64,000 nt of DNA from Dehalococcoidia bacterium (GCA_965207225.1 CBDBLV010000005.1:1888001-1952000); one strand, 5' to 3'; shown: positions 23,919 to 56,445, counted from the stretch's first letter. Notes: a model not told the origin generated them from the sequence alone. Numbers and translations: made by a program.

Positions 23919-23927
23919 TAGCTATCG

Positions 23928-24002
23928 GGGCTCGTAGCTCAGCGGCAGAGCGGTCGGCTCATAACCGATTGGTCCCTGGTTCGAATCCAGGCGGGCCCAC
24001 CA
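23928..24002 (+). tRNA. tRNA-Ile2 (CAT anticodon, lysidine type)
   Basis: Cloverleaf GGGCTCG/CGGGCCC, TAGCTCAG, CTCATAA loop, GGTTCGAATCC, A73-CCA; paired 1:72 and no 3GC anticodon stem, so not fMet; Ile2 preferred over elongator Met by resemblance. Confidence 0.85.
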
Positions 24003-25579
24003 CGCTTGACGGTAGACAGAACCGGGGCGTGGAGAGCCACCTCCTCTGTGTCCCTTCCCCCTATCGGAGCATCCTCCGGCATAGGGATGGAGTAGCGCAG
24101 CAAAGCATTGCCAGGCATCACCACGATCTCCTTCACGAAGGATTCGATGAAGGCCCTGCGCTCGGTCAACTCGCTCTTGTTGAGGAACACGCTCATGTCC
24201 AAGGCGTAGGCCGTGATGGTCTCCACGTCGTCCAGGATCTCCCTGCGCTGCGAGAGCATCGCCCTGGCCTCGGTAGCAGACGCCTCCAGCTTCTCCTGGC
24301 GCTCCCGGTGGTCTCTGATGCGGAGCTTGAAGTCCTCGATGTCCAGGTCGGTGGTCTCCGCGAGGTCGTAGAGCCGTCCCAGCCTACGCTTCACGTCCTC
24401 AAGCTCCGACTCGATAGTCTGAAGCTTCTGGCGCTGCTCCTTGGCGATGCCGTCCATCTCCTCGTCCACCAGCTTCACCAACTCCCGGATGTTGGACTCG
24501 GTGAGCACGTTCTCCCTGATCTTTCCCACCACCATCTCCTCGAAGCGCCGTGCGTTGAGCCTGGGGGTCTCGCAGGCGTGCCTGCCCCGCTTCATGATGG
24601 ACTGGCAGACGTAGTAGGCGTACCTCCCGCTCTTGGCGTCCTGGCCGCTAAGCGCCCCGTTGCACGTCCGGCACCTGACCAACCCGCTGAGCAGGTAGGT
24701 GCTTCCCACACGTCGGGGATGGGCCTTCCTGGGAGCCCGTGAACGCATTCGCTTGTTGACCCTCTTGAATTGGGCTTTGGTGACGATACCGTGGAACGCC
24801 TTGTCCACCCTGACCGGCTCGGCCTTATCCTTCCCTCCGACGCCCCAGAGGAGGGTTCCGGTGTAGGCTTCGTTTCGTAGGATGATGTGGACGCCGTTCT
24901 TGGACCAGAGCCTCCCCGTGGGGTTGGCGATGCCCTCGGCGTTGAGGGTCTGGGTGATGTCCAGGATGCCCCGGCCCGACTCGGCCATGGAGAAAATGCG
25001 CTTGACCACGGGAGCGGTTGCGGGATCGGGTTCCAGGGTGGGGCGTTTCTTGGCCCCGTCCTGCACCATGCGCTTCTGATAGCCGTAGGGCACCCTGCTG
25101 GCGACCCAGAAGCCTCTTGATGCGGCCTCCCGCATTCCCCGGCGAACTTCTTCGGCAAGATTTTCCGAGTAAAATTCGTCCACCGACTCGATGATGGCCT
25201 CCATGAGCCTGCCGGTGGCGGAGTCGTCGGCGTGCTCGGTGATGGAGACGACGCGGACTCCCTTGCGCCGGAGCATGGACTTGAAGGCGACGGCGTGTTC
25301 CCGCTTGCGGGTGAACCTCGAAAACTTCCAGACCAAAATCTCTCTGAAAGGGGCCTCGGGCTTGGCGGCCTCGTCGAGCATCTTGCGGAACTCCGGCCTG
25401 TCGGCGATGCGGCCGCTCTCGGCCTCGTCGATGTACTCCCTTGCGACGACGTAGCCGTTCTTGTCGGCGTAGTCCCTGAGTGCCCGCAGCTGGGCGGCCA
25501 CGGACAGGTCCACGTCCTGCCGGTCGCTGGACACCCTGGCGTACAGGGCCACGGGTATCAGGTCGGTTTGTTCACGCAT
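23939..25579 (-). CDS. Large serine recombinase (integrase 1); last ~20 codons are the antisense of the tRNA
   Basis: YARVSS, DEAESG, RFTR, recombinase domain, CxxC..YYVC..C Zn ribbon; SD AAGGAG before ATG 25579. Confidence 0.95.
   Translation of the reverse strand: MREQTDLIPVALYARVSSDRQDVDLSVAAQLRALRDYADKNGYVVAREYIDEAESGRIADRPEFRKMLDEAAKPEAPFREILVWKFSRFTRKREHAVAFKSMLRRKGVRVVSITEHADDSATGRLMEAIIESVDEFYSENLAEEVRRGMREAASRGFWVASRVPYGYQKRMVQDGAKKRPTLEPDPATAPVVKRIFSMAESGRGILDITQTLNAEGIANPTGRLWSKNGVHIILRNEAYTGTLLWGVGGKDKAEPVRVDKAFHGIVTKAQFKRVNKRMRSRAPRKAHPRRVGSTYLLSGLVRCRTCNGALSGQDAKSGRYAYYVCQSIMKRGRHACETPRLNARRFEEMVVGKIRENVLTESNIRELVKLVDEEMDGIAKEQRQKLQTIESELEDVKRRLGRLYDLAETTDLDIEDFKLRIRDHRERQEKLEASATEARAMLSQRREILDDVETITAYALDMSVFLNKSELTERRAFIESFVKEIVVMPGNALLRYSIPMPEDAPIGGRDTEEVALHAPVLSTVKRGGPAWIRTRDQSVMSRPLCR
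23994..24002 (+). other. att core 1 (attL), GGCCCACCA = tRNA 3' end
   Basis: Identical 9-mer at 37893 and 56383 with matching arm symmetry. Confidence 0.85.
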
Positions 25580-25599
25580 TGGCTTCTCCTTGCTATCAA

Positions 25600-26754
25600 T
25601 CATACGGTTCGGTGTCTCAAAGAGCGGAGGCCGCTCACTGGGCTGGACTCGCCCCCCCAGCACTCCGTCAGGGCCTGTTCGGCATCGATGGACGGCACCC
25701 CGGCGGCCGGCTCCGCACTCACCAACGCCACCCCCGTATCGTGGAAGCCGAGGTCGGTTGCGGGCTGCGGCTTCTGTCCGGTCCTGACGAACTCGACCAC
25801 GGCCTCAATGCCCTGCACTGCCATCCGAACCGGATACTGCATGGCGGTGGCTCCAAGCTCCCCGGCGGCGACCCTGCTCACGCCGGAACAGGCCCCGTCG
25901 ATGGTGACGATCAGCACTTCGTGCTCCAGCCCCATGGAACGGAGCGCTGTGTATGCGCCCGCAGCCGCGGGCTCGTTGATGGCGTACACGAGTCGTATCG
26001 ACGGGTCCATGCGCATCAGGCGCTCCATCGCGCTGCGCCCGCCTGCTTCCGAGCCCATGGTGGTAGCGCTGCCGGCGATGCGCGGGTCATCCTCGTCATA
26101 TTTCCTCTCCGGGTCCTTGATGTCGATGCCGAAGCCGTGGAGGAAGCCCTGGTTGCGCATCACATCAACGGTGACCGGCGTCTCATAGCCGTCCAGCGTC
26201 GCGATCCGGGTCTGAGCCGCCAGCGGCCCCAGCCTTTGCCGAGCCCAAAGGCCGATCAGTTCACCGGCCCGCAAGTTGTCGGTGGCGAAGGTTGCGTCAA
26301 CCGTGTCCGGCAGGTCGAAGGGGGTGTCGAGGGCGATCACCAGCACGCCCTCCGAACGCGCTTGCGCGACCGCCGGTTCTAGGGCCAGCGGGTCCGACGG
26401 GGTGATGAGGATGCCCTTCGCGCCCGACTCTACCAGCTCCTCAATGGCCGCTAGCTGCGCCTGTGTATCCCCGTCGTAGGCGCCGCTGTAGGTGCGCAGC
26501 TCGACGCCAAGCCCCTCGGCGCGCTCAAGGGCCGCCTCGGTCATGGTGACGAAGAAGGGGTTGCCCTCGGTCTTGGTAATCAGCCCCACGATCACACGCT
26601 CGGACTCGGTGGAAGCAGGTTCCTGAGCGCAACCGATGAAAGTCACGACGATAAGGCAGAACGACATGGCGACGAAGGACGGCACCCTGGCAGACATGGC
26701 AACAGGCGTGCGGCCATTCGTCCGATTCATAGGTACGTTCTGCTCTCGGTTCAT
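25600..26754 (-). CDS. Sugar ABC-transporter substrate-binding lipoprotein (LacI/RbsB fold, FrcB-like); start uncertain (26754/26730/26697/26667)
   Basis: Lipobox FIGC; LITKTEGNPFFV, IALDTP, ATDN, AINEP, TIDG, ATAMQYP. Confidence 0.85.
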   Translation of the reverse strand: MNREQNVPMNRTNGRTPVAMSARVPSFVAMSFCLIVVTFIGCAQEPASTESERVIVGLITKTEGNPFFVTMTEAALERAEGLGVELRTYSGAYDGDTQAQLAAIEELVESGAKGILITPSDPLALEPAVAQARSEGVLVIALDTPFDLPDTVDATFATDNLRAGELIGLWARQRLGPLAAQTRIATLDGYETPVTVDVMRNQGFLHGFGIDIKDPERKYDEDDPRIAGSATTMGSEAGGRSAMERLMRMDPSIRLVYAINEPAAAGAYTALRSMGLEHEVLIVTIDGACSGVSRVAAGELGATAMQYPVRMAVQGIEAVVEFVRTGQKPQPATDLGFHDTGVALVSAEPAAGVPSIDAEQALTECWGGESSPVSGLRSLRHRTV

Positions 26755-26981
26755 TGCTGGTCGTCCCGGCGTGAACGCCTTCGCTGCATCCGCTCCTGGA
26801 TGCGCCACTCCCTTTCTTCCATGTACAGGCGGATGGCCTCCCGCAGCACTTCGCTCACGGTGCGGCTCTCGTCCTTCACCACCTGCCGCAGGTGCTGGGA
26901 CATCTCCGGGGGCAGGGAGAAGGTGATGGTGTCGGTGTTCCTCGGCTTGACGGGCAACGTACGCTCCCCATTTTTGTCCAT
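26751..26981 (-). CDS. Ribbon-helix-helix (CopG-like) regulator
   Basis: TITFSLPPEM...RTVSEVLREAIRLY. Confidence 0.8.
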   Translation of the reverse strand: MDKNGERTLPVKPRNTDTITFSLPPEMSQHLRQVVKDESRTVSEVLREAIRLYMEEREWRIQERMQRRRSRRDDQQ

Positions 26982-27049
26982 TGATATAGTGTAGCGTCTT
27001 ACTCTTATCATCCCGCAACCGAAGCCCTTTCGTCAAGGGAGAGATGGCA

Positions 27050-27876
27050 GGAATTGCCCTGGGATGCCTTGAAACTGCGGCATTGCAGCGACACTCCAGC
27101 TACATCGATGCGAGCGATCCGGCGGCGCTGGTCGAGGCTGTCGCCGGGGCGGCCTGGGGCCGTCAACTGGCCCCTTGGAGGCTGGATGTAATGTCCTACC
27201 CGTGTACAAGGATTCGGCTCAGTTCCCAAAATGCAAGTCGGGGGTGTTTCCAAGCTGAAAGCGGGGGAGAGAGAGGGGAGGTTGGCAAGGGAGCAAGCAA
27301 TGTTTGGTCGGAGCGTGTTCCACGGATTCCGGCGGAGTTGCAGAAATGCAAGTCGGCAAAATAGCCACATTGGAGCGAGCAATGTCGATGCCCTCTGAGG
27401 CGGCGGCAGCGAGATTATTGACCGGTCACCGTGTCGAGAGCGTCGATCAAGACGAGAATGGGATGGTCGGTGATCCCGCCGGTTCTGCAACGAATTGTAC
27501 TTTTGGGAGCTGTTGGGGGCTGACACGGTGAGTGATGGGAATGCCCTTCTGGCCCCTATAGGAAGTCCTGGGAACGGCTCGGTGGGGAAGTTTGAACATG
27601 CTCCGGTGGCAAGTTGCGGCTGAGTCCAGGTGCTCCGAGTAAGACTGCTGTAGGCAGGAATCGTAGCTGTGAGACGAGGGAACCAAAGGGGTGTGACGCA
27701 TTGGCGAAAACGGCCTGATGGGTCAGTTCTGCAACGGATTGTACTTCTGCGGGCGTAAGGGGAGATGCGTGACCGGTCGCGTCTGCAAGTTGTCCCAGCA
27801 AGGCTGCTGGGACAGCCCCTATTGGAAGGGTTAGGAGCGGAAACGGCGGTCATTGCGCAGCCTGATGCATCAGGGC
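27050..27876. other. Non-coding backbone segment homologous to 41893-42408
   Basis: Identical blocks of 34 bp (27553-27586) and 48 bp (27785-27832); paired 18-bp repeats. Confidence 0.85.
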
Positions 27877-28241
27877 CTGCGAGCGTATTTCGAGGCAGGA
27901 TCGGAGCCTTCGAGCCGGCGGCGGCAACGGAGAATCGGCGGGCCGTCGTTCATGGGCTGATGCGTCAGACTACAATCGCCCATGGGAGGTTTTCGCCCTG
28001 AGAGGGCTGTAAGGAGAATCGGGGTACATTGCAGAATACAATCTGGGTGACATTCGTAGCTGAATGAAGGGGAACCAGGGCGAAGCGAAGGGAATCCATC
28101 GAGCAGTTTTACTGCGGGTCGGTGCTAAGTCTATTGTACTGATTGTATTGCACTTCATTGTGGTTTCCCATTTGATCTCGCCCACATGGTTGACCACGAT
28201 GAGCCGGTTCATGGGATGTTGCGAAGGATTCAGGAGACGGC

Positions 28242-29042
28242 GTGAAGGCCCTATCGGAGAGGCCCCTACCGGACCTGCTGGACGCTCCGGTGAATGACCG
28301 GGGCAAGGTGGCTGCGGCCGAGGCCCTGGGGGTGAACTACCGCACTATGGTGACCTGCCACGAGTCTCGTCACGTATCGCGGCGGATGCGGAAGGCGTTG
28401 GCGGAGTTCAGGGACAAGCACGGTGACGGCGGGGATGAGCAGGACGATGACGCCGGTGACATTGTAGGGAAGGTAACGGCGTTGGAAGAACGGGTGGCGG
28501 CGATGGAGGAAGCGCATGGAGCATTGGTGGAGACCGTCGAGGCCCAGGCGAGACAACTGACGGAGTTGGAGCGCAATGCTGGAGGGTCGGAGGGCGGGGC
28601 GGTGGAAGAGAAACGGGACCTGCAAAAACCTAATGCGGCGGATTATGACGATGACGGGCAAGGAACACAGTGGCGGCCTCCACGACGGGAGCACGGCCTT
28701 CCCGACGCCGGAGTGGTCACGTTGGAGGAACAGCCCGACGAAGGGCACGCCTTCGGCCCGGCTGCCCCGTTGGTGGCGGAATGGCGAGGGCTGAGGAGTG
28801 TCGGTGAGGCGTCGGGCGGTCGGGTTGACCGGGCGAAGGCTGCGGTGCGACGGTGGGAGCTGGAGGTCGCCATGCTCGGAGACTACGGCCTGACGCTGCC
28901 GCCGGAGACCGCACCCCTGGACGCATCGCGCAGGGAGGACCACCTGCGGTGGCGGAAGGAGGCGCTGGCAGCGGCCTTGGCGAAAGCAAGGCGGCTGCGC
29001 TGGCTGAGGCGAGCACTCACCCTGGGTCTGCGATGGGGGTAG
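28242..29042 (+). CDS. Hypothetical protein with N-terminal HTH and coiled coil
   Basis: AAAEALGVNYRTM HTH-like segment; heptad LEERVAAMEE region; AGGAG before GTG. Confidence 0.65.
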   Translation: MKALSERPLPDLLDAPVNDRGKVAAAEALGVNYRTMVTCHESRHVSRRMRKALAEFRDKHGDGGDEQDDDAGDIVGKVTALEERVAAMEEAHGALVETVEAQARQLTELERNAGGSEGGAVEEKRDLQKPNAADYDDDGQGTQWRPPRREHGLPDAGVVTLEEQPDEGHAFGPAAPLVAEWRGLRSVGEASGGRVDRAKAAVRRWELEVAMLGDYGLTLPPETAPLDASRREDHLRWRKEALAAALAKARRLRWLRRALTLGLRWG

Positions 29043-29242
29043 CCGACTGAAGTAGCTCAAGGCGCCCTTCGCCGTCGGCCAGCAGATCGGACAGTCCGCG
29101 GTGGACTCGGCTCTTTCCAAGCGATGGACGGAGGTGGTAGAATGCAACTCGTAGAAGAATGCTCTGTTGGAGGAGCCTCGGAGTGGATGCGCCGGTGTCG
29201 GTTGGAGATGGCGCAGGCTCCGGGCCGATTGTCGGGTGAGAT

Positions 29243-29938
29243 ATGACGACGCCAGACACATTCACCAAAACCGCAGAAGTGCAAGGCGGCTTCCGGCTGC
29301 CCGACCCGCCGCAGCGGGAACCGGATGAGATGACGCAGTACGACCAGCTCTTCAAGTACGGCTACTCCCACGCCCTGGCAGTGCATCTGGGCAACCCGGA
29401 GACCACCCTGGTGGAGGCGGACCGCTGGATAGTCGCCAGGCCGGAGTTCAACAAGGCACGCGCCCGGCGTCCCGACCTCTTGGTGGCCTTTGGTGTTGAT
29501 CCCGAGGTGTATCGCCGGAGCAACGGGTACATCGTCTCGGAGCAGGGGAAGCCGCCGGACTTCGTGCTTGAGGTGGCGTCGGAGAGCACCGGAGCAATGG
29601 ACGTGGGGGCCAAACGGGTGGACTATGCCCGTTTGGGCATACCCGAGTACTGGCGGTTCGACGAGACGGGAGAGTATCACGGGGCGAGGTTGGCCGGTGA
29701 CCGGCTGGTGGAGGGCCGATACGAACCCATACCGATAGAGACCGTGTCCGATGGAGTCCTCCAGGGACACAGTGCCGTGTTGGGCCTGAATCTGCGATGG
29801 TCGGATGGTGAGCTGCTGTTCTACGACCCCGCCACCGGGGAGCCCATCGCCACCTTTGAGCGTGAACGAGCCCGCGTCGAGGCTGCTGAAGCCCGAGTCC
29901 GGGAGTTGGAGGAGCGGCTCCGTAGCCAGGGAGCGTAG
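29243..29938 (+). CDS. Uma2/DUF820-family PD-(D/E)XK endonuclease-like protein
   Basis: RPDLLVAF, PPDFVLEVAS, KRVDYARLGIPEYWRFD; C-terminal AEARVRELE coil. Confidence 0.9.
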   Translation: MTTPDTFTKTAEVQGGFRLPDPPQREPDEMTQYDQLFKYGYSHALAVHLGNPETTLVEADRWIVARPEFNKARARRPDLLVAFGVDPEVYRRSNGYIVSEQGKPPDFVLEVASESTGAMDVGAKRVDYARLGIPEYWRFDETGEYHGARLAGDRLVEGRYEPIPIETVSDGVLQGHSAVLGLNLRWSDGELLFYDPATGEPIATFERERARVEAAEARVRELEERLRSQGA

Positions 29939-30111
29939 CCTCACTGCCGGATCAGTAGGGCAAGGAGCAACAACACCGACCTTAAGGTTATCGAATGAGC
30001 GGATTGGCAGTCCAACTCACCCAAATTGCGGTCGCATCGGCTACCTTGTCTTGGGTCTTGCCCAAGACATTGGGGCGTAACCCTCGCCGCAGGCCTTTGA
30101 AAGCCTTGGAG

Positions 30112-30124
30112 CCCCCCCCCCCCC
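30112..30124 (+). repeat. C13 homopolymer upstream of the adhesin gene
   Basis: 13 consecutive C, 41 bp before ATG 30165. Confidence 0.9.
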
Positions 30125-30164
30125 GCCTAATAGCTATTCTGTTTCCGGCCTGCGCGATGATGAC

Positions 30165-33100
30165 ATGATGAGCCGCGCCGCCGGGTTCCGACGCCTGCTC
30201 TCCTTCCGTTCCTTGCTGGCCGTGGCCGCGGTGTCGGCGCTGCTCCTGACCCTGCTCCATGCGCAGCAGGCGCAGGCCCAGTCCGGCGACCTGAGTCTCG
30301 CCGTGACCGAGCGCAGCGAAAGCAGCCTGACGGTGCAGTGGAGCCAGCTTGAAGACGTGGTTACCTATACCGTCATCCTCCTCGGGGGTGACGAGTTCCA
30401 GGTGCACACCGCCTCACCCGGAGAGGACACCTACGTCTTCACCGGCTTGCAGGCTGACTTCCAGTACGAGCTGAGCGTCAGTGCCTTCCGCAGCGACGCC
30501 ACCAGTGCCGGCGAGGTTCAGATCAGGGCGCGCACACTGCCGCCCATCAAGCCAGAGCCGACGCCGGTGGTGGAGCCCGAGATCGTCCCCCAAGTAAGCG
30601 TGACGGCTGGCCCTGAAGTTACCGAGGGCAGCGACGCCGTATTCACGATAACGGCAGACCCGGTGCCTGCCGGTGACATCACTGTGGAGCTGACTATCAC
30701 TGCCGGCGGCGACGTGATCGGCGACGGAGAGACCGGCCAACGGACCGTGACTGTTCCGGCCAGCGGATCAGCGACCTACGCCGTGTCCACCGTCGACGAC
30801 GGCGTGGTCGAATCCCCCGGAACCGTTACGGCGACGCTTGTCTCCGCCAGCGGCGGCTACGCCGTCGCGGATGCACCCAACGACGCGGCAACCGTGACGA
30901 TAACCAGCGAAGACTGGCTCCTCCGCACTCCCACGATCAACTTGGCCCGGCCTAGCCCCGGCATTACTGAATATATACCAACCGACTTTGTGCTGCACGT
31001 ATTCCCTGCACCGGACAAGCCGCTGCTGATCAACGTGAGATTGTCGCAGGAGAACGATTTCTACGATCCCGTGGACCTGGGGCTGAAACAGCTCCTAATT
31101 CCGGCCAAACATCACTCCCTGGTGCATAAGATCACTCCGATTGACGACAGCGTGGCCGAGCCCGACGGCAGCATCACCCTGGAGCTGCTGCCGGGAGCGG
31201 GATATCAGCTGGGCCCTTACAAGTCCACCACGGAAGTGATCATCGATAGAGACCTGACCGAGGAGGAGCGGAAGAACTACACTCCGGAAATCCAGGTCGT
31301 CGGGACGGTCGTCACGGGGGGAAGCTACGAAGGCAGCGATTACCGGTTCAGGTTCACGTCGAAAAGATCCCTGTCCAGTCCGCTCCCCATCACCGTTGAG
31401 ATCAGCCAGATTGGTGATTTCGTGACGCCGGAACACCTGGGCAAGCGCCAGTTGACCATTCCCGCCGCCCCTTCACACGCCTACTTGATCGTCCCCACGG
31501 TGGACGACCAAGTTGACGAGCCGAACGGCCGGGTGGTGGCACGGGTTCTGCCCGGCGACGGCTACGTGGCAGCTGGGTGGTACGACGGAGAGGAACACAG
31601 CGGGAGTGACTACGGCAGCCAGTGGATCCAGGACAATGACGAGGTGGAATTCACCCTCGCCACTGGGACGGACATCAGCGAGGGCGGCGAGGCGGAGTTC
31701 ACCATTAGCGCCTCGGAGTCGTCGCCGGCCCGAACGGAAACCATCAAGGCCCTCGTCAGCCAGAACGGCGACTTCGTGGGCGCGTCCAACGACCTGGGCC
31801 TGCGTACCCTCACCATCACCACCGGGCAGTCCATCACGCTGCGCGTAGCCACCGACGACGACAGTGCCGATGAAGCCGACGGCTGGGTGAGCCTGTCCAT
31901 CGAAGGCGCTACGGCGCAGGTCGTCGTATCCGACGACGACGGCGGACAGGTCGCGCAGGTCGGGGATTGCGCAGCCGATGTGTCCACCACCTGCACAGCG
32001 CGCGTAGACGGCAAGGTAGGCGGCGTTTTGGATTCCGGCCTCGACGAAGACTGGCACGGCGTCAGCCTGACCGCAGGCCGGACCTACTGGATGAAGGCGT
32101 GGGGGTTTGAAGCGGGGGTGTTCTGCATACACGACGCCTGGGGCGATTGCACGCAAGAGCGCTGGGGCTACTTGGACGATGGCTTCGTTTTCACGCCAGA
32201 GAAGAGCGGGACCTGGTTCATCGGAGTCCGACCATCGGGAGTTATAGGGCAATGGCCCCCGACCCCGAATCAGACTGTCCCGCCCGGGTTGCTGGAAGTG
32301 GAACTGCAATCGCTAGCCGAAATCGCGGAATATGAGAAAGCCTACGTGCTGGAAGTGGCCACCGTCGCCGACGATTACCCCGCCGACGCGACCACCACCG
32401 GTCAATTGAGCGCCGACGGCAGCGCGGCCACCGGCCGCAATGAAACCCGCGTGGACGTGGACTGGTTCCGGGTCAGCCTGAGCACCGGCGTAGAATATTA
32501 CATCTACGCCGATTCGACGCTGACCAAGTCGGGACTGGCGCACCCGCTCCACGCCAGGGTCGAAGGGGTGTACGACGCCGACGGCAACCGCGTCGCCAGC
32601 GGCGTAGAATCCCCACTGGCGGCGACGGCCCCGGACGCTGTCGTAACTCCGGACGCCGATGGTACCTACTACGTCGCCGTCACGGGCAACTTGTACAACT
32701 ACCGACTTGCCCGGCATCCTGCCGCGGACACGGGCGAAAGACCTTTTATCGATACCCCCTATTCTCCTGGCAGTAGTTTCACTGCATCCATCGAGTACGC
32801 AACCTGCCTGCTGACTGCTCTCGACTGTTATGATAGTTTCTGGGGATTAAGTTTGGGCAACGGGGTTGAATCCTCGGATTGGCACAATGGCGGTGTCCCC
32901 TACCAGCTGTCCGTAGTCACTGGGGAGGACGACTACGCGGACCACCGGGACACGACCGCCAGCGTCGCGGTCGGTGGGTCGTTGACCGGAGCCATCGACT
33001 ACCCGGGCGACGTGGACTGGGTCGCGGTCACGCTCCCGCCTGGCAGCCTGTATGAATTCAAGGTTGAGGGTGTTGCCGCCAACGGCAAAGCGACTTTGCC

Positions 33101-46125: not shown

Positions 46126-46161
46126 CACAGAACACTAACCGTGTCATTGTAGGAGTGCGCA

Positions 46162-47252: not shown

Positions 47253-47349
47253 ACTAGAAGGGAGTGTGTATGAGCGGGAGTAGGCGTTGAGAGCAGTGGC
47301 TTAGGGTAGAAGCCGGACGAGCCTTTCCAGAATATCACGGAGGTTTCCC

Positions 47350-47592
47350 ATGACAACAGGAAGGTACGAATTCAAAGTCAACGGGGTTGAGTTCAGGACG
47401 GACACTCCTGAGCTGACTGCATCCCAGATTCTGGCGATTGCCATTGAGGGCAAAGCGGTTCCTAATCCTAAAGGAGCAGACACATACATTCTGCGCGGTG
47501 ACAAGGGTGAGTACCAGGGAGGTACCCGGATTGACCTAACGGTCGACAACGTGTTCATAACCGTGCCGACAGGACCCACGCCTGTGGCATGA
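47350..47592 (+). CDS. Ubiquitin-like beta-grasp protein (multi-ubiquitin type)
   Basis: YEFKVNG....LTASQIL...IDL...FITVP pattern; 80 aa; precedes E2/E1 genes. Confidence 0.65.
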   Translation: MTTGRYEFKVNGVEFRTDTPELTASQILAIAIEGKAVPNPKGADTYILRGDKGEYQGGTRIDLTVDNVFITVPTGPTPVA

Positions 47593-47605
47593 GTGGAGGT
47601 GAGGC

Positions 47606-47983
47606 TTGGCACCCAACGACATAAGTCGGGTCCAGTCAGAACTGGAGGAGTTAGGATACGCTCCTACACTACACAATTGGAAGCATGGTGTCGTTGTCGA
47701 ATTCGACTACACCGTCGAGGTTGGCACTCACACGGGACAGATGTTTAGGCTCGGTATGAGCTTTCAAGAGCAGGGCTATTCGGAATACCCTCCTCACTGG
47801 ATACACGTGAGCCCTCCTGTGGATGATGGCCTGGGTGGTGTACAGGAGCGATACCAAACTGCGGATGGTCGGGAGTGGATTGCCTTAAGCAGACCCCCCA
47901 GCGATATATGGGACAATCTGCCGGTCAAGAACATGAGGCACTACCTTGACGAGCATATACGGCGATTCTGGAGTCGGATGTGA
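47606..47983 (+). CDS. Prokaryotic E2-like protein lacking cysteine
   Basis: Y..YPPHWIH, W..LSRP motifs; position between the Ubl and E1 genes. Confidence 0.6.
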   Translation: MAPNDISRVQSELEELGYAPTLHNWKHGVVVEFDYTVEVGTHTGQMFRLGMSFQEQGYSEYPPHWIHVSPPVDDGLGGVQERYQTADGREWIALSRPPSDIWDNLPVKNMRHYLDEHIRRFWSRM

Positions 47984-49446: not shown

Positions 49447-49506
49447 TAGTGCATACCTATTCCAGTACACTAAGGGCCGGTGGTAGAATACCCTGAGGAG
49501 TATACC

Positions 49507-52257
49507 ATGCCTCCACGTAGGAGATCACCACAATCCAAGCGTCCCATTGAGTCCTATGACCACCGGGACAAGGAAAGACTGAACAACCCACCCGTCGGAC
49601 TAGTCACGCCGGAGACTGACCGGGACGCGGGACGGAAGACCTACGCCTACGACCCCCATCTGGACCCGCAGCTCCAGTGGGCGGGAAAGGCGGAGCATAC
49701 CTCCTTTCAGGTTCCCACGGTCTCTCTCCATGTACACGAGCGCATCGACCCCCGCACCATCATTGAGGCTACCCGCAGGCGCAACGGCAACGGCGCTCCG
49801 GTACAGGGCAGTCTCTTTGAGCTGCCGGAGGAGAACCCCCCGGTCCGCAACGCCATCGAGTTCTACCAGCACCGTCACAACTGGACCAACCGCCTCGTAG
49901 CTGGCGATAGCCTATTGGTGATGAACAGCCTGCTGGGGAAGGAGGGCATGGCCGGCAAAGTGCAGATGGTCTACATCGACCCTCCTTATGGAATCCGGTA
50001 TGGCTCTAACTTCCAGCCTTTCGTGAACCGTCGAGACGTGAAGGATGGCAAGGATGAGGACCTGACCCAGGAGCCGGAAACCATTAAGGCCTTCCGCGAC
50101 ACCTGGGAACTAGGCATCCACTCCTATCTGTCCTATCTACGGGACCGTCTGCTGCTAGCGCGGGAGATGCTAAGTGAGACAGGTAGCGTTTTCGTGCAGA
50201 TTTCCGACGAGAACGTCCATCTGGTTCGAGAACTCATGGATGAGATTCTTGGCCCCGAACAGTTCATGTCTCTTATATCGTTCAGGACAAAGATCCCACT
50301 GAACGCAGCCTTCTTGCCCAATATAGCAGATTTCTTGATTTGGTATGCCAAAGACAAGGATAAGGTAAAGTTCCGACGGTTGTTCACAACTCGTAATTTC
50401 GGTGAGGAAACACAATTCTCTAACGCACAGCTGGAGGATGGCGCTGTAACAAAGGCATCTGAAGTGCCCGAATCTGAAATCGAGTCTACTCGCTACTTCA
50501 CCCTCATTGATCTCATGGCAACCGGTTATACCGAATCATGCCACTTTGAGTTTTTCCTAGAAGGAAGGAGAGCGTACCCCAACCCTACTACAAGCTGGAA
50601 GACTACACCTGAAGGAATGCAGCGACTGATTGCCGCCAACAGGGTCCGATGGCAAAGGACTGTGCCAAGATATGTCTTTTTCGCAGACGACTACCCTGTC
50701 ATGCAAATCACCAACCAATGGACAGATACGCAGGGGGCAGTTGGCAAAACATTCGCCGTCCAAACCTCCTCAAAGGTCATTGAGCGTTGTCTCCTGATGA
50801 CTACCGACCCTGGCGACTTGGTGTTCGACCCTACCTGCGGCTCCGGCACCACCGCCCATGTCGCCGAGCAATGGGGCCGTCGCTGGATCACGTGCGATAC
50901 ATCCCGTGTGGCGATAGCTCTTGCCAAGCAGCGATTGGTGACCGCCCTTTACGACTACTATGAGTTGGCCCATCCAAGCGAGGGAGTGGGTAGCGGCTTC
51001 AACTACAAGACTGTCCCCCACATCACTTTGGGTTCCATCGCTAACAACCCCGACATCAAAGAGGGCATGACCCAAGAGGACATCGACAAGGCCATCGCCC
51101 GCCACGCTCCCCAGGAGACACTGTACGACCAGCCTTTGGTGGACACGGGCAAAAGGCGGGTGACCGGTCCCTTCAGTGTCGAGGCTGTCCCCGCACCGGC
51201 GGTCAAGCCCATCGACGACATTGACGTTGCCGAGCCGCTGCCCGCCGATGACACGGTGGCCCGCTCTGGCGAAACACTGCGCCAGTCAGACTGGCGGGAG
51301 GAGCTGCTAAAGACGGGCATCCGTGGTAAGGCAGGGCAGTTCATTCGCTTCGCCAGGTTGGAGCCTTTGCCGGACCATCGCCATCTACACGCCGATGGCG
51401 AGTCGTTGCCCAACGCCGACGGCGCCCAGAGCATTCGGGAAGGCCCAGCGCGGGCATCACAGCGTGTTGTCGTATCTTTCGGACCTGAGCACGCGCCGTT
51501 GGAGCCGCGTCAGGTGAACCAAGCCTTGCAGGAAGCCGAAACCCTAAGGCCGAGTCCTCGTATCATCGTCTTCGCTGCCTTCCAGTTCGACCCCGAAGCA
51601 GCGAAAGACATCGACGAAACCAACTGGCCCGGCATGACCCTGCTGAAGGCGCAAATGAATGCTGACCTACTCACTGAGGATCTGAAGCGCAAGCGAGCGA
51701 GCAATGAGAGCTTCTGGCTCATCGGCCAGCCGGATGTGCAGGTTGAGGCCATCGCTAATGGTAAAGACGCGGGAAAGCGCCGCGTTAGTGTCCAGGGGTT
51801 CGATTACTACAACACCAAGAGCGGCGATGTGGAGTCGGGTGGACAGGACAAGATAGCGATGTGGATGCTAGACACGGACTACGACGGTCGCAGCCTTTAT
51901 CCTCGGCAAGTGTTCTTTCCCATGTCTGGCAGCAACGATGGATGGACTCGCCTGGTCAGGAACCTCAAAGCGGAGATAGACGAGGAGCTAATCGAGGCTT
52001 ATCGGGGCACCCTATCTCTGCCCTTCGAGCCGGGAGAGAATCGGCGGATAGCGGTCAAGATCATCGACGACCGGGGTATCGAGAGCCTGAAGGTGATTGG
52101 GTTGGACGCCGAACCTAAAGTAACGAAGTCCAGTAGAACTCTGGAGGATATTTTCGTAGCGCGCTTCAATGACATCCCTCAAGAGGAATGGGATCGGCTG
52201 CCGCACGACTTGATTGACAACCTGGATCACTACACCGCTGGCGCGGATCGTCGATGA
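49507..52257 (+). CDS. mod: Type III R-M methyltransferase (Mod) with a 49-aa antitoxin-like C-terminal extension
   Basis: YIDPPY, FDPTCGSGTT, usual end IAVKIIDDRGIESLKVI, then extra tail; SD GAGGAG before ATG 49507. Confidence 0.92.
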   Translation: MPPRRRSPQSKRPIESYDHRDKERLNNPPVGLVTPETDRDAGRKTYAYDPHLDPQLQWAGKAEHTSFQVPTVSLHVHERIDPRTIIEATRRRNGNGAPVQGSLFELPEENPPVRNAIEFYQHRHNWTNRLVAGDSLLVMNSLLGKEGMAGKVQMVYIDPPYGIRYGSNFQPFVNRRDVKDGKDEDLTQEPETIKAFRDTWELGIHSYLSYLRDRLLLAREMLSETGSVFVQISDENVHLVRELMDEILGPEQFMSLISFRTKIPLNAAFLPNIADFLIWYAKDKDKVKFRRLFTTRNFGEETQFSNAQLEDGAVTKASEVPESEIESTRYFTLIDLMATGYTESCHFEFFLEGRRAYPNPTTSWKTTPEGMQRLIAANRVRWQRTVPRYVFFADDYPVMQITNQWTDTQGAVGKTFAVQTSSKVIERCLLMTTDPGDLVFDPTCGSGTTAHVAEQWGRRWITCDTSRVAIALAKQRLVTALYDYYELAHPSEGVGSGFNYKTVPHITLGSIANNPDIKEGMTQEDIDKAIARHAPQETLYDQPLVDTGKRRVTGPFSVEAVPAPAVKPIDDIDVAEPLPADDTVARSGETLRQSDWREELLKTGIRGKAGQFIRFARLEPLPDHRHLHADGESLPNADGAQSIREGPARASQRVVVSFGPEHAPLEPRQVNQALQEAETLRPSPRIIVFAAFQFDPEAAKDIDETNWPGMTLLKAQMNADLLTEDLKRKRASNESFWLIGQPDVQVEAIANGKDAGKRRVSVQGFDYYNTKSGDVESGGQDKIAMWMLDTDYDGRSLYPRQVFFPMSGSNDGWTRLVRNLKAEIDEELIEAYRGTLSLPFEPGENRRIAVKIIDDRGIESLKVIGLDAEPKVTKSSRTLEDIFVARFNDIPQEEWDRLPHDLIDNLDHYTAGADRR

Positions 52258-52673
52258 CTGAAATCTTCGTGGACACCGCATATCTCATAGCCCTAGCCAG
52301 GCGTCACGACCAATGGCACGACACGGCGCTCGCCGCTCGGAATAGACTTGGTGAAGTACCCTTGGTGACGACAGACGAGGTGCTCACTGAGTTCTTGACT
52401 GCGATGTCGAACGCCGGTCCGGGGTTGCGAGGGGACGCCGCGGGTACGGTCAGAGAGATCCTGGAGGCCGGCGCAATTAGAATTGTAGCTCAGACACGCC
52501 AGTCCTTCCTTGAAGGGCTCGACAGATACGAGAAGCGTCTCGATAAAGACTATAGCCTTCAGGACTGCATCTCTATGAATGTGATGGAGGCAGAGGGAAT
52601 TACCGAGATTCTCACCAGCGACCACAACTTCGAGCAGGAAGGCTTTACCATCCTGATGAAGCAGGACAGGTAG
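52254..52673 (+). CDS. vapC: PIN-domain (VapC-like) toxin
   Basis: FVDT, VLTE, SLQDCIS, TSDHNF acidic quartet; ATGA overlap with mod. Confidence 0.88.
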   Translation: MTEIFVDTAYLIALARRHDQWHDTALAARNRLGEVPLVTTDEVLTEFLTAMSNAGPGLRGDAAGTVREILEAGAIRIVAQTRQSFLEGLDRYEKRLDKDYSLQDCISMNVMEAEGITEILTSDHNFEQEGFTILMKQDR

Positions 52674-52681
52674 GGGCCGCG

Positions 52682-55486
52682 ATGGAACAGTCAACGATAG
52701 ACCGGCTCATCATCAACAAGCCGTATGAGGAGCCGAAGGAGTACTGGAACTACAATCGGGAGACACGTAAGTTCTGTCGGAAACCTGGCCGCCGTCCTGC
52801 GGGCTACCTGATAGCGTCTGGGGACTCCAAGACTTTCGACGATCCAGGTGTCTTCGTCGAAATCCCTCTGGTCAACCAGATACGGCCGCGGGTAAAGGAT
52901 TGGAGTGACGCCGGGTATCCTGGCGTCACCGCCATCACCAAGCGCCTGTTGGAGCACTGGACAGACCCGGAAGAATTCGAGAGCCGTCGATTCTTCTTCT
53001 GTCAGATCGAAGCTGCCGAGACGCTCATCTGGCTCGCCGAAGCCCCAGACAGCGAGAAGGTAGGCATCGACATCCCTGGCGACGGTGGAGAGTTCTGGCG
53101 CCTATGCGCCAAGATGGCCACCGGGACGGGCAAGACCGTTGTAATGGCGATGCTCATTGCTTGGCACATCTTGAACAAGGTCTCATATCCCCAGGACACC
53201 CGGTTCGCCAAGAACGTGCTGGTGGTTGCCCCTGGACTCACCATCAGGAGCCGTCTTGCGGTCCTGGAACCATCCCACGAGGACAACTACTACGAGGCTT
53301 TCCGTGTTGTACCTTCATCCCTACTGGACCGGCTCCGCCAAGGGAAGGTCATTGTCCGAAACTGGCACGCCCTCAACTGGGAGACCGAGGATCAGATTAG
53401 GAGAAAGCGGAGCGTGGACAAGCGCGGGGCAAAGAGTGACGAAGCCTACGTTCGCGATGTGCTGGGCGACATGGCCGGAGCACGAAACCTGCTAGTCATC
53501 AACGATGAGGCGCACCATGCCTGGAGAGTGCCCGCCGAGTCCAAGGTGAAGGGCGTTGCCAAGGCGGACATCGAGGAGGCGACCAAGTGGGTTGGCGGCC
53601 TGGACCGGATTCATCGAGCGCGGGGCATCCTCACTTGCTTTGACTTCTCGGCCACACCCTTTGCTCCTTCCGGCAAGAGGAGTTCCGAAGAAGCGCTGTT
53701 CGACTGGATAGTAAGTGACTTTGGACTGAACGACGCCATCGAGTCCGGGTTGGTCAAGACGCCGAGGGTCGTGATTCGGGACGACACACCGGTTGATGCC
53801 AAGACCTACAGGTCGCGCCTCTACCACATCTACAACGACCCGGAGGTGAAGGACGATCTGAATCGCCGTGCCCAGCCCCACGAACCGTTGCCCGACTTAG
53901 TGACCAATGGATACTATCTGCTTGGCTATGACTGGAGAGAGGCCGCCAGAGAGTGGCAAGAAGCCAAGCTCAAGACACCACCGGTAATGATCACCGTCGC
54001 CAACCGCACTGAGACCGCAGCCAGAGTCAAACACGCCTTTGACCGCAAGCGAGTCCTTATAGACGAGCTCTGTGACCCGGACCGTACGTTGCACATCGAC
54101 TCCGGCGTTCTGAAGAGAGCCGAAGAGTCCGAGGAACCGATAGCCGAGATCATGCCGGACGATGAGGATGAATCTGACAACGGTGCTGTCAGTCCCAAGC
54201 TCACTAGAGACCAGATGGCCGAGCAGTTGCGAAAGATGGTGGACACCGTGGGACGGCCCGGGCAGCCCGGTGAGCGGGTACAGAACGTCATTTCAGTGGG
54301 AATGCTCTCCGAGGGCTGGGACGCCAAGACCGTGACACACATCATGGGTCTGAGGGCCTTCACCAGCCAACTGTTGTGCGAGCAGGTGGTCGGGCGAGGT
54401 CTCAGGCGCACGTCTTACGATGTGAATCCAGAGACAGAGATGTTTGACCCTGAGTACGTCAACATTTTCGGTGTGCCGTTCACCTTCCTTCCCCACGAAG
54501 GGGGCGAGAGTGGGCCTCCGAAGCCTCCCTCACCCAAGACGGCTATTGAGCCAGTACCGGAAAAGGCCCCGTTCGAGATCAAGTGGCCCAACATCATCCG
54601 CATTGAGCATGTCTATCGCCCCAGACTGACCTTGGATTGGAATCAGGTAGAACGTTTGGAGCTCAATGCCAGTGAAACGGCGCAAGTGGCCGAGCTTGCC
54701 CCGGTAGTGGATGGCAAGCCCGACGTGTCCAAGCTGACCAGCATCGACCTAGAGGCGTTGGCCCACGAGTACCGGACTCAGAAGATAATTTTCGAGACCG
54801 CACGGGACGTGTTTGACCTGATGAAGCCGTCCTGGGCAGGGAGCCGTGAGTCGCTCATCGCCCAGTTGGTGAAGCTGGTAGAGCAGTTCCTTCTATCGGG
54901 CAGCCTGGGTATTACTCCTCCCCTCTTCTATCAGGACGACATGCGCCGTCGCCTTATGATCACATTAAACATGACGAAGGTGGTGCAGCACGTATGGGAT
55001 GCTGTCCGCGTCGAGAACACGGAACGACTTGAGCCGGTGTTCGACCGCGACCACCCAATACGCTCTACTGCGAACATGGCAACCTGGTACACAGGCAAGC
55101 CGTGCAACCTAACGGACCGCAGCCATATCAACATGTGCGTCTACGACAGCACTTGGGAAGCCTCGGAAGCTTTTGAGTTGGATTACAACCGTCTAGTGAA
55201 TGCCTGGGTCAAGAACGACCACCTGGGCTTCGAGGTGCTCTACGTCTACCGTGGTGTGGTGCGGAAGTACCGACCGGATTTCATCATTCGCCTGAGATCA
55301 GGAAACACGCTGATCCTGGAGACCAAGGGGCAACCAGATGAGCAAAGCTACTCAAAGCACCGCGCTCTGGAGCAATGGATTGAGGCCGTCAACCAGCACG
55401 GCGGATTCGGCCGCTGGTCAGCAGATGTTTCTTATAGCCCAGGGGACATCAAGGACATCTTGGCGAAGCACGGTGCTGTCGAATGA
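52682..55486 (+). CDS. res: Type III restriction enzyme Res subunit (SF2 helicase + PD-(D/E)XK)
   Basis: MATGTGKT, NDEAHH, SATP, LSEGWD, QVVGRGLR, YRPDF..LETKG. Confidence 0.92.
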   Translation: MEQSTIDRLIINKPYEEPKEYWNYNRETRKFCRKPGRRPAGYLIASGDSKTFDDPGVFVEIPLVNQIRPRVKDWSDAGYPGVTAITKRLLEHWTDPEEFESRRFFFCQIEAAETLIWLAEAPDSEKVGIDIPGDGGEFWRLCAKMATGTGKTVVMAMLIAWHILNKVSYPQDTRFAKNVLVVAPGLTIRSRLAVLEPSHEDNYYEAFRVVPSSLLDRLRQGKVIVRNWHALNWETEDQIRRKRSVDKRGAKSDEAYVRDVLGDMAGARNLLVINDEAHHAWRVPAESKVKGVAKADIEEATKWVGGLDRIHRARGILTCFDFSATPFAPSGKRSSEEALFDWIVSDFGLNDAIESGLVKTPRVVIRDDTPVDAKTYRSRLYHIYNDPEVKDDLNRRAQPHEPLPDLVTNGYYLLGYDWREAAREWQEAKLKTPPVMITVANRTETAARVKHAFDRKRVLIDELCDPDRTLHIDSGVLKRAEESEEPIAEIMPDDEDESDNGAVSPKLTRDQMAEQLRKMVDTVGRPGQPGERVQNVISVGMLSEGWDAKTVTHIMGLRAFTSQLLCEQVVGRGLRRTSYDVNPETEMFDPEYVNIFGVPFTFLPHEGGESGPPKPPSPKTAIEPVPEKAPFEIKWPNIIRIEHVYRPRLTLDWNQVERLELNASETAQVAELAPVVDGKPDVSKLTSIDLEALAHEYRTQKIIFETARDVFDLMKPSWAGSRESLIAQLVKLVEQFLLSGSLGITPPLFYQDDMRRRLMITLNMTKVVQHVWDAVRVENTERLEPVFDRDHPIRSTANMATWYTGKPCNLTDRSHINMCVYDSTWEASEAFELDYNRLVNAWVKNDHLGFEVLYVYRGVVRKYRPDFIIRLRSGNTLILETKGQPDEQSYSKHRALEQWIEAVNQHGGFGRWSADVSYSPGDIKDILAKHGAVE

Positions 55487-56181
55487 TCTGGGCACCCAAT
55501 GTGGAGAATGCATCAGAAGTCGTTAAGGCAGCGTTGGCCGATATTGAGGCCGACGAAAGGCAACTGATCGCCAGTTCAGGTGAGATGTTCAAAGCCGACG
55601 GTGGTGCAGTTTATGGATTTGACCTCTTAGCGAATGCTGCCATAAATCGCGCCTTGGCCCTGTCTTCAGGCTTCAGGACATTGATCCTTGAACGGAATCT
55701 CGTTTGTGCAGGATCCCTAGTCCGGCTGCAACTGGATACCTCGCTCCGCCTATACGCCGGCTTCATTGTAGAGAAGCCACATGATTTCGCTATCAAAGTA
55801 TTCGCGGGTAAGAACATCAGAAGGTTGAAAGACAAAGATGGCAACTCCATGACTGATCGGTACCTGGTTGAGAAACTGGCGAAGCAATATCCTTGGATCG
55901 AATCAGTTTACGAACGGGCGTCAGACTACGTGCACCTGTCTGGTACCCATATCCTAAGTTCCGTGGAACTCATCGACAAACAGTCAGATGTTATAGGCTT
56001 GAAGGCTAGCTTCCTCGACAAGCCACTTTCAGACGACATCTATATTGATGCCATAAATGCATTCAGGCAATGCACACGCATCGTTGCTGACCATATTGAA
56101 GGTTGGATATGGACCAAGAATAATCCGGAAAAGATTGCCTCATTAACGGAGATGCGAGAACGGGAAAGTCATGGCATCTAG
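55483..56181 (+). CDS. Hypothetical protein, possible HEPN/DUF5677-like
   Basis: LVRLQLD...YERASDYVH motif; ATGA overlap with res. Confidence 0.6.
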   Translation: MIWAPNVENASEVVKAALADIEADERQLIASSGEMFKADGGAVYGFDLLANAAINRALALSSGFRTLILERNLVCAGSLVRLQLDTSLRLYAGFIVEKPHDFAIKVFAGKNIRRLKDKDGNSMTDRYLVEKLAKQYPWIESVYERASDYVHLSGTHILSSVELIDKQSDVIGLKASFLDKPLSDDIYIDAINAFRQCTRIVADHIEGWIWTKNNPEKIASLTEMRERESHGI

Positions 56182-56336
56182 TTGGAGGCTCAACTTCTTC
56201 GCAATGGTTCTTGAACCGAGGTCGCATCCCTGCATACGTATGCATCCCCAACTCAACCATCGACGCTCGGCTCACAGGTTGCAAGGCCGGATGAATGCCT
56301 AGTTCTGTATGACTTCGCCGTCTGCTTAGGGGATGA

Positions 56337-56390
56337 CTAGATTGGGACTTCCCATCGAAAAGTTCGCAGTTTAGTAGGCTTTGGCCCACC
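56337..56390 (-). other. Detached 3' end of integrase 2 (GGPKPTKLRTFRWEVPI-stop)
   Basis: Becomes in frame with integrase 2 when island 2 is circularised at the core. Confidence 0.75.
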
Positions 56391-56391
56391 A
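56383..56391 (+). other. att core 3 (right end of island 2)
   Basis: GGCCCACCA with GTTC at -21 and GAAC at +17..+20. Confidence 0.85.
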
Positions 56392-56408
56392 GACTTGATA
56401 AAATCAAG

Positions 56409-56445
56409 AACCTTCGCAATTTCCTTCAAGCTGGAGGTATAGTCG
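56409..56445 (+). repeat. 37-bp direct repeat, copy 1
   Basis: 33/37 identical to 59062-59098. Confidence 0.9.

Follow-up and report, generated by a model that had tools for sequence, protein, structure and literature searches.

The closest described relatives of the system reported here are the tandem islands at ssrA in Dehalococcoides, for which McMurdie et al. described the serine recombinase DsiB in 2011 (PMC3146451). The parts of that paper that deal with the recombinase propose that DsiB may be fully functional only on the circular island or downstream of an adjacent island that supplies a 3′ fragment, and they report the DsiB ends as divergent. In this study, we analyzed a stretch of 64,000 nucleotides from a Dehalococcoidia bacterium (GCA_965207225.1, CBDBLV010000005.1:1888001-1952000; hereafter the window, with positions counted from its first letter), in which two large serine recombinase (LSR) genes, int1 and int2, read across copies of a recombination core that matches the 3′ end of a tRNA gene. 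The work followed up an earlier reading of this DNA, made without knowledge of its origin and referred to here as the original prediction. We consider it likely that integrative islands are stacked here in a tandem array, of which the region covers the tRNA-proximal side, and that they are moved by LSRs of a Dehalococcoidia-wide family with a DsiB-like design.

The likeness to DsiB is one of published description and design, and both systems occur in the same bacterial class. A sequence relationship to DsiB is hinted at by the origin of the 80 related loci described below, all from Dehalococcoidia/Chloroflexota. In both systems, tandem islands follow a tRNA-like target, whose 3′ end recurs as a direct repeat at the island borders. 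Each has a reverse-strand serine recombinase of about 540 residues by the left attachment site (attL); the 3′ end of its gene overlaps attL, and the stop codon falls beyond the island border. As far as the published account of DsiB goes, the two also differ. The target there is ssrA, whereas here it is tRNA genes (seven of them in the present genome, and 14 tRNA species when 80 loci are taken together), and the repeat is 20 bp there and 9 bp here. DsiB belongs to a six-gene module (the small recombinase DsiA, a RecF-like protein, a ParB-domain protein and Mom with an embedded tRNA-like gene among them), whereas no DsiA/RecF-like/ParB/Mom module was found by int1 or int2 in a Pfam scan of 27 open reading frames (ORFs) of at least 116 residues. 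Lastly, a second, mirror-placed LSR lineage is present here, and the native C-terminal tails are conserved and selected, in contrast to the reported divergence of the DsiB ends.

Attachment sites that interrupt genes are known from other integration systems. As reviewed for the Mx8 integrase IntP/IntX (PMC6070905), the phage attachment site (attP) lies within the integrase coding sequence, and integration yields a recombinant gene with a new 3′ end whose product is altered in behavior, not inactivated. Mx8 Int is a phage tyrosine recombinase and the review's account describes no tandem relay between neighbors, whereas the present enzymes have serine recombinase domains; the likeness is in the way of working, not in membership. 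Mycobacteriophage BPs (PMC4557955) carries attP in its repressor gene, and integration removes a C-terminal ssrA-like degradation tag; its integrase also has a C-terminal proteolysis signal. Both there and here, integration removes a C-terminal peptide from the gene that contains attP, but in BPs it is the repressor that is cut, by a tyrosine-type recombinase, whereas here the LSR itself is cut and has conserved residues 5-9 positions before its end rather than at the extreme terminus. The "suicidal" SSV-type integrases, which the review that covers them (PMC8371274) places only in archaea, likewise have the recombination site within the integrase gene. They are tyrosine recombinases whose gene is split and inactivated, whereas here only a disordered C-terminal extension is exchanged and the domains remain whole.

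The LSRs of phages such as phiC31, Bxb1, A118/LI and SPbeta have the same domain architecture as the enzymes described here. Their attachment sites are short, with inverted half-sites around a central crossover and an outer motif that lies further out in P-type than in B-type sites; as targets they mostly use protein genes or intergenic DNA, and excision needs a separate directionality factor. We know of no attP inside the integrase frame in this group. No separate directionality factor was identified in the present islands. The literature covered, mostly main texts with few subscription journals, contained no tRNA-targeting serine-recombinase family with the attachment site inside the gene beyond DsiB at ssrA (PMC3146451), and no description of mirror-placed LSR lineages or of selection on a detachable tail.

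Both recombinase frames cross a copy of the tRNA-end core

The window is C5:1888001-1952000 of the assembly (G000; 4.03 Mb in five contigs, 92.3% complete, 8.3% contamination). Its single tRNA gene has the anticodon CAT and was labeled Met by ARAGORN. The acceptor stem (GGGC/GCCC) and T arm are common with the genome's tRNA-Ile(GAT), and one of the three CAT tRNAs in the genome is initiator-like. By elimination and by its likeness to tRNA-Ile(GAT), the gene is plausibly, though not provenly, tRNA-Ile2, as the original prediction had it against the ARAGORN label.

The last nine bases of the tRNA gene, GGCCCACCA, form a core that occurs in the window at 6483, 23994, 37893 and 56383. Four matches compare with 1.08 expected, and since four or more were reached in 4 of 100 shuffles, the count alone is not significant. 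The context of the copies at 23994, 37893 and 56383 is far beyond chance; the copy at 6483-6491 lies far from any recombinase, has no matching context and is consistent with chance.

Two minus-strand ORFs span the core, each as Gly-Gly-Pro, where Gly-Gly results from reading the discriminator base and CCA in antisense. The first (23939-25663) has the C-terminus KRGGPAWIRTRDQSVMSRPLCR and reads GGPAWIRTRDQSVMSRPLCR and a stop inside the tRNA gene, the last 17 codons of int1 (23992-23942) being the antisense of the tRNA. Alignment with int2 makes the ATG at 25579 the most likely start, which would give 546 residues. The second ORF (37823-39478, int2) has the C-terminus VSGGPELTIGRTIFELWMGDPTSLRRS and likewise reads GGPELTIGRTIFELWMGDPTSLRRS and a stop. 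At the third core, the minus strand (56390-56337) encodes GGPKPTKLRTFRWEVPI and a stop.

Both proteins contain the Resolvase, Recombinase and Zn_ribbon_recom domains (PF00239, PF07508 and PF13408), all above the Pfam cut-offs, and the YARVSSDRQ catalytic motif. They are 69% identical, in an alignment that ends exactly at Gly-Gly-Pro, and the nearest paralogue of int2 (93% identity) lies on tRNA-Val(TAC). Across 86 sequences of 29-83% identity, R61, R88 and R91 are invariant and Y13, R15, S17 and Q21 nearly so. What is exchanged is the tail after Gly-Gly-Pro. As integrated, int1 ends in the tRNA-antisense peptide; the tail that belongs to int1 in its circular form (T1) is now read as the tail of int2; and the native tail of int2 (T2) is detached. 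The three LSR domains stay whole on integration, with the changes confined to the residues after Gly-Gly-Pro.

These observations bear out three claims of the original prediction: that tandem LSR islands sit at a tRNA 3′ end, as seen from the cores, ORFs, Pfam matches and arm symmetry; that the attachment site lies inside the LSR frame, both ORFs crossing the core; and that integration swaps C-terminal tails, leaving int1 with a tRNA-antisense peptide and int2 with the tail from the far end of island 1. A further claim, that all three cores lie in an integrase frame, held at 23994 and 37893, whereas only a detached tail with no integrase upstream is found at 56383.

A PDB sequence search gave matches limited to the N-terminal and recombinase domains. 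The AlphaFold2 model, built on the 86-row alignment, had a mean predicted local distance difference test (pLDDT) score of 86 and was ordered to about residue 520, with helices at 361-409 and 414-448, then 452-468 and 471-481, forming a long coiled-coil insertion between the zinc-ribbon strands. A shallower alignment (50 rows, 72-83% identity) gave a mean pLDDT of 54 and was discarded. Because residues 521-551, which comprise the peptide encoded by the P′ arm of the attachment site and the tail, had a pLDDT of 38-47 and no confident placement, the attachment site lies within DNA coding for a flexible extension. On the guess that the tail might resemble a clamp-binding hexapeptide, a complex of the genome's DnaN with int2 residues 505-551 was predicted; its score of 0.02 gives no answer, neither for nor against binding.

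Geometry of the attachment sites

The outer arms of both islands are in-register inverted repeats around the center GGCC/CACCA (the slash marks the point of symmetry). Symmetry extends to 18 of 30 positions for island 1 and 22 of 30 for island 2, compared with a mean of 7.8 (standard deviation 2.5, maximum 19 of 30) for 20,000 random arm pairs from the window. A symmetric 17-mer (15/17, island 1) and 12-mer (12/12, island 2) that had been pointed out beforehand were confirmed within these repeats. GTTC lies at -25 to -22 in the P arms and at -19 to -16 in the tRNA arm, the outer motif of the B-type half-site being nearer the center; this is a shift of 6 bp, and the canonical shift between P- and B-type outer motifs is about 5 bp. 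Correspondingly, GAAC sits 22-25 positions from the center on the P arms; on the tRNA arm the distance is 16-19, and the motif there belongs to the T loop. The "RT" of all tails is CGA/AGA ACC, i.e., the GAAC half-site motif in frame. No GTTC/GAAC-type outer motif was seen in the distal arm of the bacterial attachment site (attB), and the tRNA arm is the sole half-site with B-type spacing in the array. Three arm types, each palindromic with its own partner, could be told apart: a (GTTCTGYCTAYCGTCAA), b (GTTCTTGATTTYRTC) and c (GTTCGCAGT), the last belonging to int2.

This geometry suggests how the islands would integrate. The tRNA gene 3′ end would serve as attB, its B half-site being made up of GTTC in the T loop, the acceptor strand and the CCA that the gene encodes, and strand exchange would take place inside GCCCACCA, whose symmetry center is that given above. 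The putative attP would span about 50 bp and form an imperfect palindrome over the final ~20 codons of the island's own LSR gene. Its P′ arm would code for the residues just ahead of Gly-Gly-Pro and also bring CACCA, so that the tRNA would be whole after insertion, while its P arm would code for the 14-22 residues after Gly-Gly-Pro. Since attP would lie across the LSR 3′ end, integration would split the native tail off the LSR; int1, the enzyme next to the tRNA, reads into the tRNA antisense, and int2, an internal enzyme, into the arm that its left neighbor left behind. The integration chemistry would be ordinary LSR chemistry on a tRNA end. Indications of the predicted attP × attB recombination are indirect and consist of the empty site in a congener and the variable occupancy described below.

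The native tail has two parts

To compare tails, copies of T1, T2 and T3 (T3 being the native tail of a third island, see below) were picked by eye from 263 regular-expression matches in the genome, giving 15, 7 and 11 copies, respectively. The T1 set combined the genome's copies with three genome loci and four metagenome loci, for 13-14 unique sequences. Counting codons after the first Gly, we analyzed proximal codons 3-9 and distal codons 10-16 for the proportions of nonsynonymous and synonymous differences (pN and pS). Proximal T1 codons had a pS of 0.27 and a pN/pS of 0.91. Distal T1 codons, which were also analyzed in a smaller set of 10 sequences, had a pS of 0.71 and a pN/pS of 0.24, the lowest of the six frames (others 0.47-15). 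The LSR frame was likewise the lowest of six for the distal codons of T2 (pN/pS 0.30, five unique sequences) and of an unrelated tail family, FSLxFSLxT followed by a stop (pN/pS 0.45, seven sequences), which came from a pattern scan of metagenome contigs that constrained only the core and the half-site. Overall, the proximal codons showed a pN/pS of ~0.9-1.4 with low pS, and the distal codons a pS of ~0.7-0.8. Conserved T1 residues use all four Gly codons, TTT/TTC, GAA/GAG and TTG/CTT.

The distal motif, F-x-h-x-h-x-h with a stop within four codons, was present in 32 of the 78 full-length matches of the pattern scan. Recombinase binding symmetry does not explain this motif, because it has no mirror in the partner half-site. 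In our reading, the first ~7 tail codons are attachment half-site DNA, and the next ~7, with the motif and the stop, probably encode a peptide that is maintained by purifying selection; the native tail appears to be functional. The motif that the original prediction saw the tails share is there, with its "RT" being the half-site in frame and the residues that follow carrying the selection signal. Such a conserved motif at the end of a predicted disordered extension would resemble a short linear motif. Separately, a tail derived from tRNA-Ile(GAT), SWTRTRDLSLIRTAL, and a short T1 tail, ELTVGRTIFELWMGL, are of equal length (15 residues) and agree in Thr3, Arg6 and the final Leu and in having hydrophobic residues at 8 and 11, by chance or mimicry.

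Two LSR lineages in a longer array

Near-full-length LSR paralogues number 32 in the genome, only one of them with an internal stop. Enzymes placed like int1, which we term A-type, are encoded opposite to the tRNA, at the island end nearest to it. An antisense A-type LSR occupies the 3′ end of 7 of the 49 tRNA genes (Ile-GAT, Ala-TGC, Lys-CTT, Val-TAC, Gln-TTG, Val-GAC and the CAT tRNA of the window). B-type LSRs are ~55% identical to the A-type and have the C-terminus SVLDFVQSGPP; they are encoded on the same strand as the tRNA, at the distal island end, and read outward across the same core. One of these, on the plus strand of island 3 outside the window (C5:1960474-1962114), has T3 as its native tail. 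Further same-core junctions follow beyond the window at C5:1962013, where a B-type LSR is convergent on an A-type LSR, at C5:1973009 and at ~C5:1990320, and then come three reversed ones. Because these junctions continue, a third island must begin with its left arm in the DNA to the right of 56391 (CTTGATAAAATCAAGAACC), which is not chromosomal flank. The two islands first proposed are thus both real, but there are more than two, and two LSR lineages.

Several loci of the genome have unusual reading frames. At C5:1988796-1990320, a B-type frame runs past Gly-Pro without a stop into a HerA/DUF87-like ORF (a 1072-residue open frame); the core at ~C5:1990320 reads GGCC/CAGTGAG, not CACCA, and could be a rearranged or secondary-site junction. 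Convergent B/A pairs occur at C3:24821, C3:58951, C3:86826, C4:735669, C4:873313, C5:1961992 and C5:2032322. The 3′ ends of these seven pairs overlap by ~50 bp across one core, each enzyme reading the other's antisense, and read-through gives frames of 643 and 546 residues. Several junctions elsewhere in the genome are arm-only relics without a recombinase.

We also scanned the whole genome for stacked arms by the strict pattern GTTC-N42-GAAC with a core-like center, which gave 22 sites, three of them chance matches with no arm likeness. The remaining 19 two-arm junctions, which are not independent since some are copies of each other, comprised eight a/b, seven b/a, three c/b and one a/c. None was homotypic, against ~41% expected by random pairing at the observed arm frequencies. 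By a known rule, serine integrases do not target their own attL or right attachment site (attR), and the all-heterotypic stacking fits this rule. The idea of a single element with two recombinases, one of each type, and a hybrid attP was set aside, as A- and B-type each have their own symmetric arm pairs and A-only and B-only islands exist; the unit C3:24821-58951 has no recognizable inner junction and might fit that reading. Repeats of 2.2-2.6 kb with 99.7-100% identity occur in many copies (C4:19187-21779, C5:156753, C5:1057953, C5:1138597, C1:67072 and others), several inside B-type islands, and are probably insertion sequences. No LSR match lies within ~19 kb of the tmRNA gene (C1:198772-199125).

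Empty site and occupancy among congeners

The tRNA and the DNA upstream of it, 2 kb in all, are present in eight congeners at 79-96% identity, and the tRNA end is identical in all eight. In congener G008, the DNA directly after the tRNA matches C4:29126-30623 of the present genome with 88.7% identity over 1502 bp. That DNA begins directly after GTCCAGTCCAGCCCACCA, the end of a B-type LSR (C4:27570-29066). As the tRNA in G008 adjoins the DNA that follows the array's last core in G000, G008 carries an empty-site allele; a lack of such alleles in relatives had been set beforehand as a result that would refute the prediction, so that this test came out in its favor. The distal end of the G000 array thereby appears to be on another contig (C4). 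Other congeners have the flank further in, or arm-like scars beside the tRNA. One of them (locus L018 in G001) has an inverted a-type arm after the tRNA, which on the plus strand reads GPPNLTVDGTVFELWL, a T1-like tail, and no recombinase within 1.5 kb; this is a scar or an inversion product.

Occupancy varies sharply. At E ≤ 1e-100, the genome has 33 LSR matches versus 0, 0, 0, 1, 3, 4, 6 and 6 in the eight congeners. Window positions 46428-56391 recur as C4:1-9964 with 100% identity over 9,964 bp (99.9% over 10,012 bp), and the right part of island 2 has two different right neighbors, both B-type islands. This duplicate represents either two copies in one long array or two co-assembled haplotypes. 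Island 1 has diverged copies elsewhere in the genome (88-93% identity). None of the loci read from L021-L180 showed the terminal overlap of a circular contig, and no relative was found among viral contigs.

The design recurs across Dehalococcoidia

Homologues at E ≤ 1e-30 numbered at least 4,997 in a word-indexed search, and an exhaustive search found 3,201 among 50%-identity cluster representatives. We examined 80 loci from one-genome-per-species records, all from metagenome-assembled genomes of Dehalococcoidia/Chloroflexota. In 52 of these loci, the GGx codon coincides with the 3′ end of a tRNA gene on the opposite strand, with 14 tRNA species covered; of the rest, 12 read into a convergent B-type gene, four have native-like tails and 12 are other. 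The 114-residue read-through of convergent pairs recurs in 12 of the 80 loci, from other genomes. Among the best 120 homologues, 50 tails are T1-like, 40 tRNA-antisense-like, 11 run into a convergent LSR and 19 are other. Even representatives at only 31-47% identity have tRNA-antisense-like C-termini.

Features and cargo of the islands

Coordinates of the features in the window are collected in Table 1.

Table 1. Features of the tRNA-proximal islands, in window positions
Feature	Position	Strand	Remarks
tRNA (CAT), plausibly tRNA-Ile2	23928..24002	+	T arm and acceptor/CCA end, putative B half-site of attB
int1, A-type LSR	23939..25579	-	546 aa from the most likely ATG; open frame up to GTG at 25663
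Junction S1, core GGCCCACCA	23994..24002		tRNA arm, then island-1 P′ arm; center GGCC/CACCA
Island 1, 13.9 kb	24003..37901		bounded by cores
Tail module T1, ELTIGRTIFELWMGDPTSLRRS and stop	37823..37891	-	island 1 distal arm (Pa)
int2, LSR, 551 aa, arm type c	37823..39478	-	ORF and Pfam
Junction S2, core GGCCCACCA	37893..37901		island-1 Pa arm, then island-2 P′c arm
Island 2, 18.5 kb	37902..56391		bounded by cores
Tail module T2, KPTKLRTFRWEVPI and stop	56337..56381	-	island 2 distal arm (Pc)
Junction S3, core GGCCCACCA	56383..56391		island-2 Pc arm, then third-island P′b arm
P′b arm and tail module T3, DLIKSRTFAISFKLEV and stop	56392..56442	+	left end of B-type island 3
Island 3, first 7.6 kb, B-type	56392..64000		continues to genome C5:1962013 (window 74013)

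The Pfam scan of the 27 ORFs mentioned above covered islands 1-3. Island 1 carries a periplasmic binding protein, a Uma2 nuclease and a 2516-residue Fn3 repeat protein. The ORF of the latter (30165-37715, plus strand) has a GC content of up to 72% and internal repeats of ~330 bp besides its Fn3 match. Contigs of four Logan runs have many joints that skip ahead or go back, all inside this ORF, which suggests variation in repeat number; related repeat blocks occur in several other islands. Island 2 encodes an AAA ATPase, a Replic_Relax protein, an XRE helix-turn-helix protein with an ImmA/IrrE peptidase, ThiF and PIN proteins and a type III restriction-modification pair (N6_N4_Mtase and ResIII). 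Its segments 46162-47252 (XRE/ImmA pair) and 47980-55486 (ThiF, restriction-modification and PIN) are defense-island-like and include a possible induction switch. Within the window, island 3 has a META-domain protein, GmrSD_C/Excalibur, PIN and an Eco57I-type methylase.

Discussion

The anatomy and its recurrence throughout the family are established, as are an empty site and a signal of selection on the tails, and we weighed what the exchange of tails may do. Possibly, the native tail acts only while attP is intact, tuning integration competence, partner binding or turnover, and the integrated enzyme goes without it; we advance this tentatively. That the F-x-h-x-h-x-h motif is a state sensor, present on the enzyme only with an intact attP or with a neighbor's look-alike arm, we regard as rather unlikely. 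The original prediction took the tail relay for a position-dependent switch, in which a newcomer at the proximal junction loses its tail and gives a native-like tail to the previous resident. It held this to be undescribed, but the idea was already in print as a hypothesis, since McMurdie et al. had put it forward for DsiB in 2011 (PMC3146451). The map fits such a relay in that the int1 tail is tRNA-derived and the int2 tail is the T1 of island 1; the tRNA arm alone has B-type spacing, favoring a proximal target; and the native tails are under selection. Changes of tail have precedents in Mx8 Int (PMC6070905) and the BPs repressor (PMC4557955). However, insertion at the distal side would produce an identical junction map, so that newcomers may or may not always enter at the tRNA-proximal site as claimed. 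Moreover, the tail borrowed by int2 is T1 and not of its own T2 type, which leaves interchangeability presumed. Because both enzymes at B/A junctions get long foreign tails (114 and ~30 residues), native-like tails are not the rule at internal positions. A positional switch of this kind is possible but doubtful.

Alternatively, the swap could be an incidental by-product, attP having been fitted into the end of the gene, with tails that lack a function of their own and are alike only through constraints on the DNA (attachment site, accessory-factor site or terminator). The proximal codons do behave as DNA, the "RT" is the GAAC motif found on every arm, that of the tRNA included, and the tail is predicted to be disordered and may be missing from integrated enzymes; the ends of DsiB, as McMurdie et al. 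report them (PMC3146451), are divergent. This reading is unlikely, as the distal codons of T1, T2 and the metagenomic family combine saturated synonymous change with conserved residues and stop position in the best of six frames, and the distal motif is unmatched in the other half-site. Least credible is that the array is a fossil, its inactive relics kept by drift or domesticated for another task. The arm-only relic junctions would suit it, as would the lack of circle or deletion junctions in the short contigs examined, but int1 and int2 are full length with conserved catalytic-domain residues, 32 near-full-length copies show a single internal stop, occupancy differs sharply among congeners, and 10 kb of island 2 has a second copy at 100% identity. 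We consider a fossil array very improbable.

Several results weigh against an active array with functional native tails. Beyond 56391, the array is uncertain in the assembly, given its five contigs, its 8.3% contamination and the two right neighbors of island 2. Neither a circle junction (37901/24003) nor a deletion joint (24002/37902) was found in contigs of the four Logan runs over 23500-43400, where contigs are short and the LSR is multi-copy. Integrated LSRs at four loci (L078, L084, L088 and L077) stop at the core with tails of 0-3 residues, and the tail is therefore not needed for a folded enzyme. The distal pN/pS of T3 (0.56 in 11 sequences) is not separated from two other frames (0.50 and 0.58), which also suits the by-product reading. 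Lastly, the pN/pS sets are small, paralogous, tree-free and partly selected by eye, and ascertainment could inflate the signal.

Serine integrases are prized in genome engineering since integration is one-way until a separate factor reverses it, and both the control of direction in islands without a known factor and the building of tandem arrays are open questions in the field. The LSRs described here form a large natural family in which the attachment site is written into the disordered end of the enzyme, and there is evidence for a selected peptide in the part that is detached. Its members provide natural "experiments" with tails that are native, borrowed, tRNA-derived or absent. Given the family size, the evidence for a selected peptide and these variants, the 2011 hypothesis can be put to a direct test. 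Another point shown by the family is that the universal T-arm/CCA end of many tRNAs can serve as a target for serine recombinases, and in this sponge-associated Dehalococcoidia lineage ~33 LSR copies have piled up in one genome together with restriction-modification and defense-type cargo. If the state-sensor reading is true, the tail would set directionality, partner binding or lifetime, which for phage serine integrases is partly the job of a separate directionality factor; together with the heterotypic junctions (19 of 19), it would amount to a stacking grammar for serine-recombinase islands at tRNA genes.

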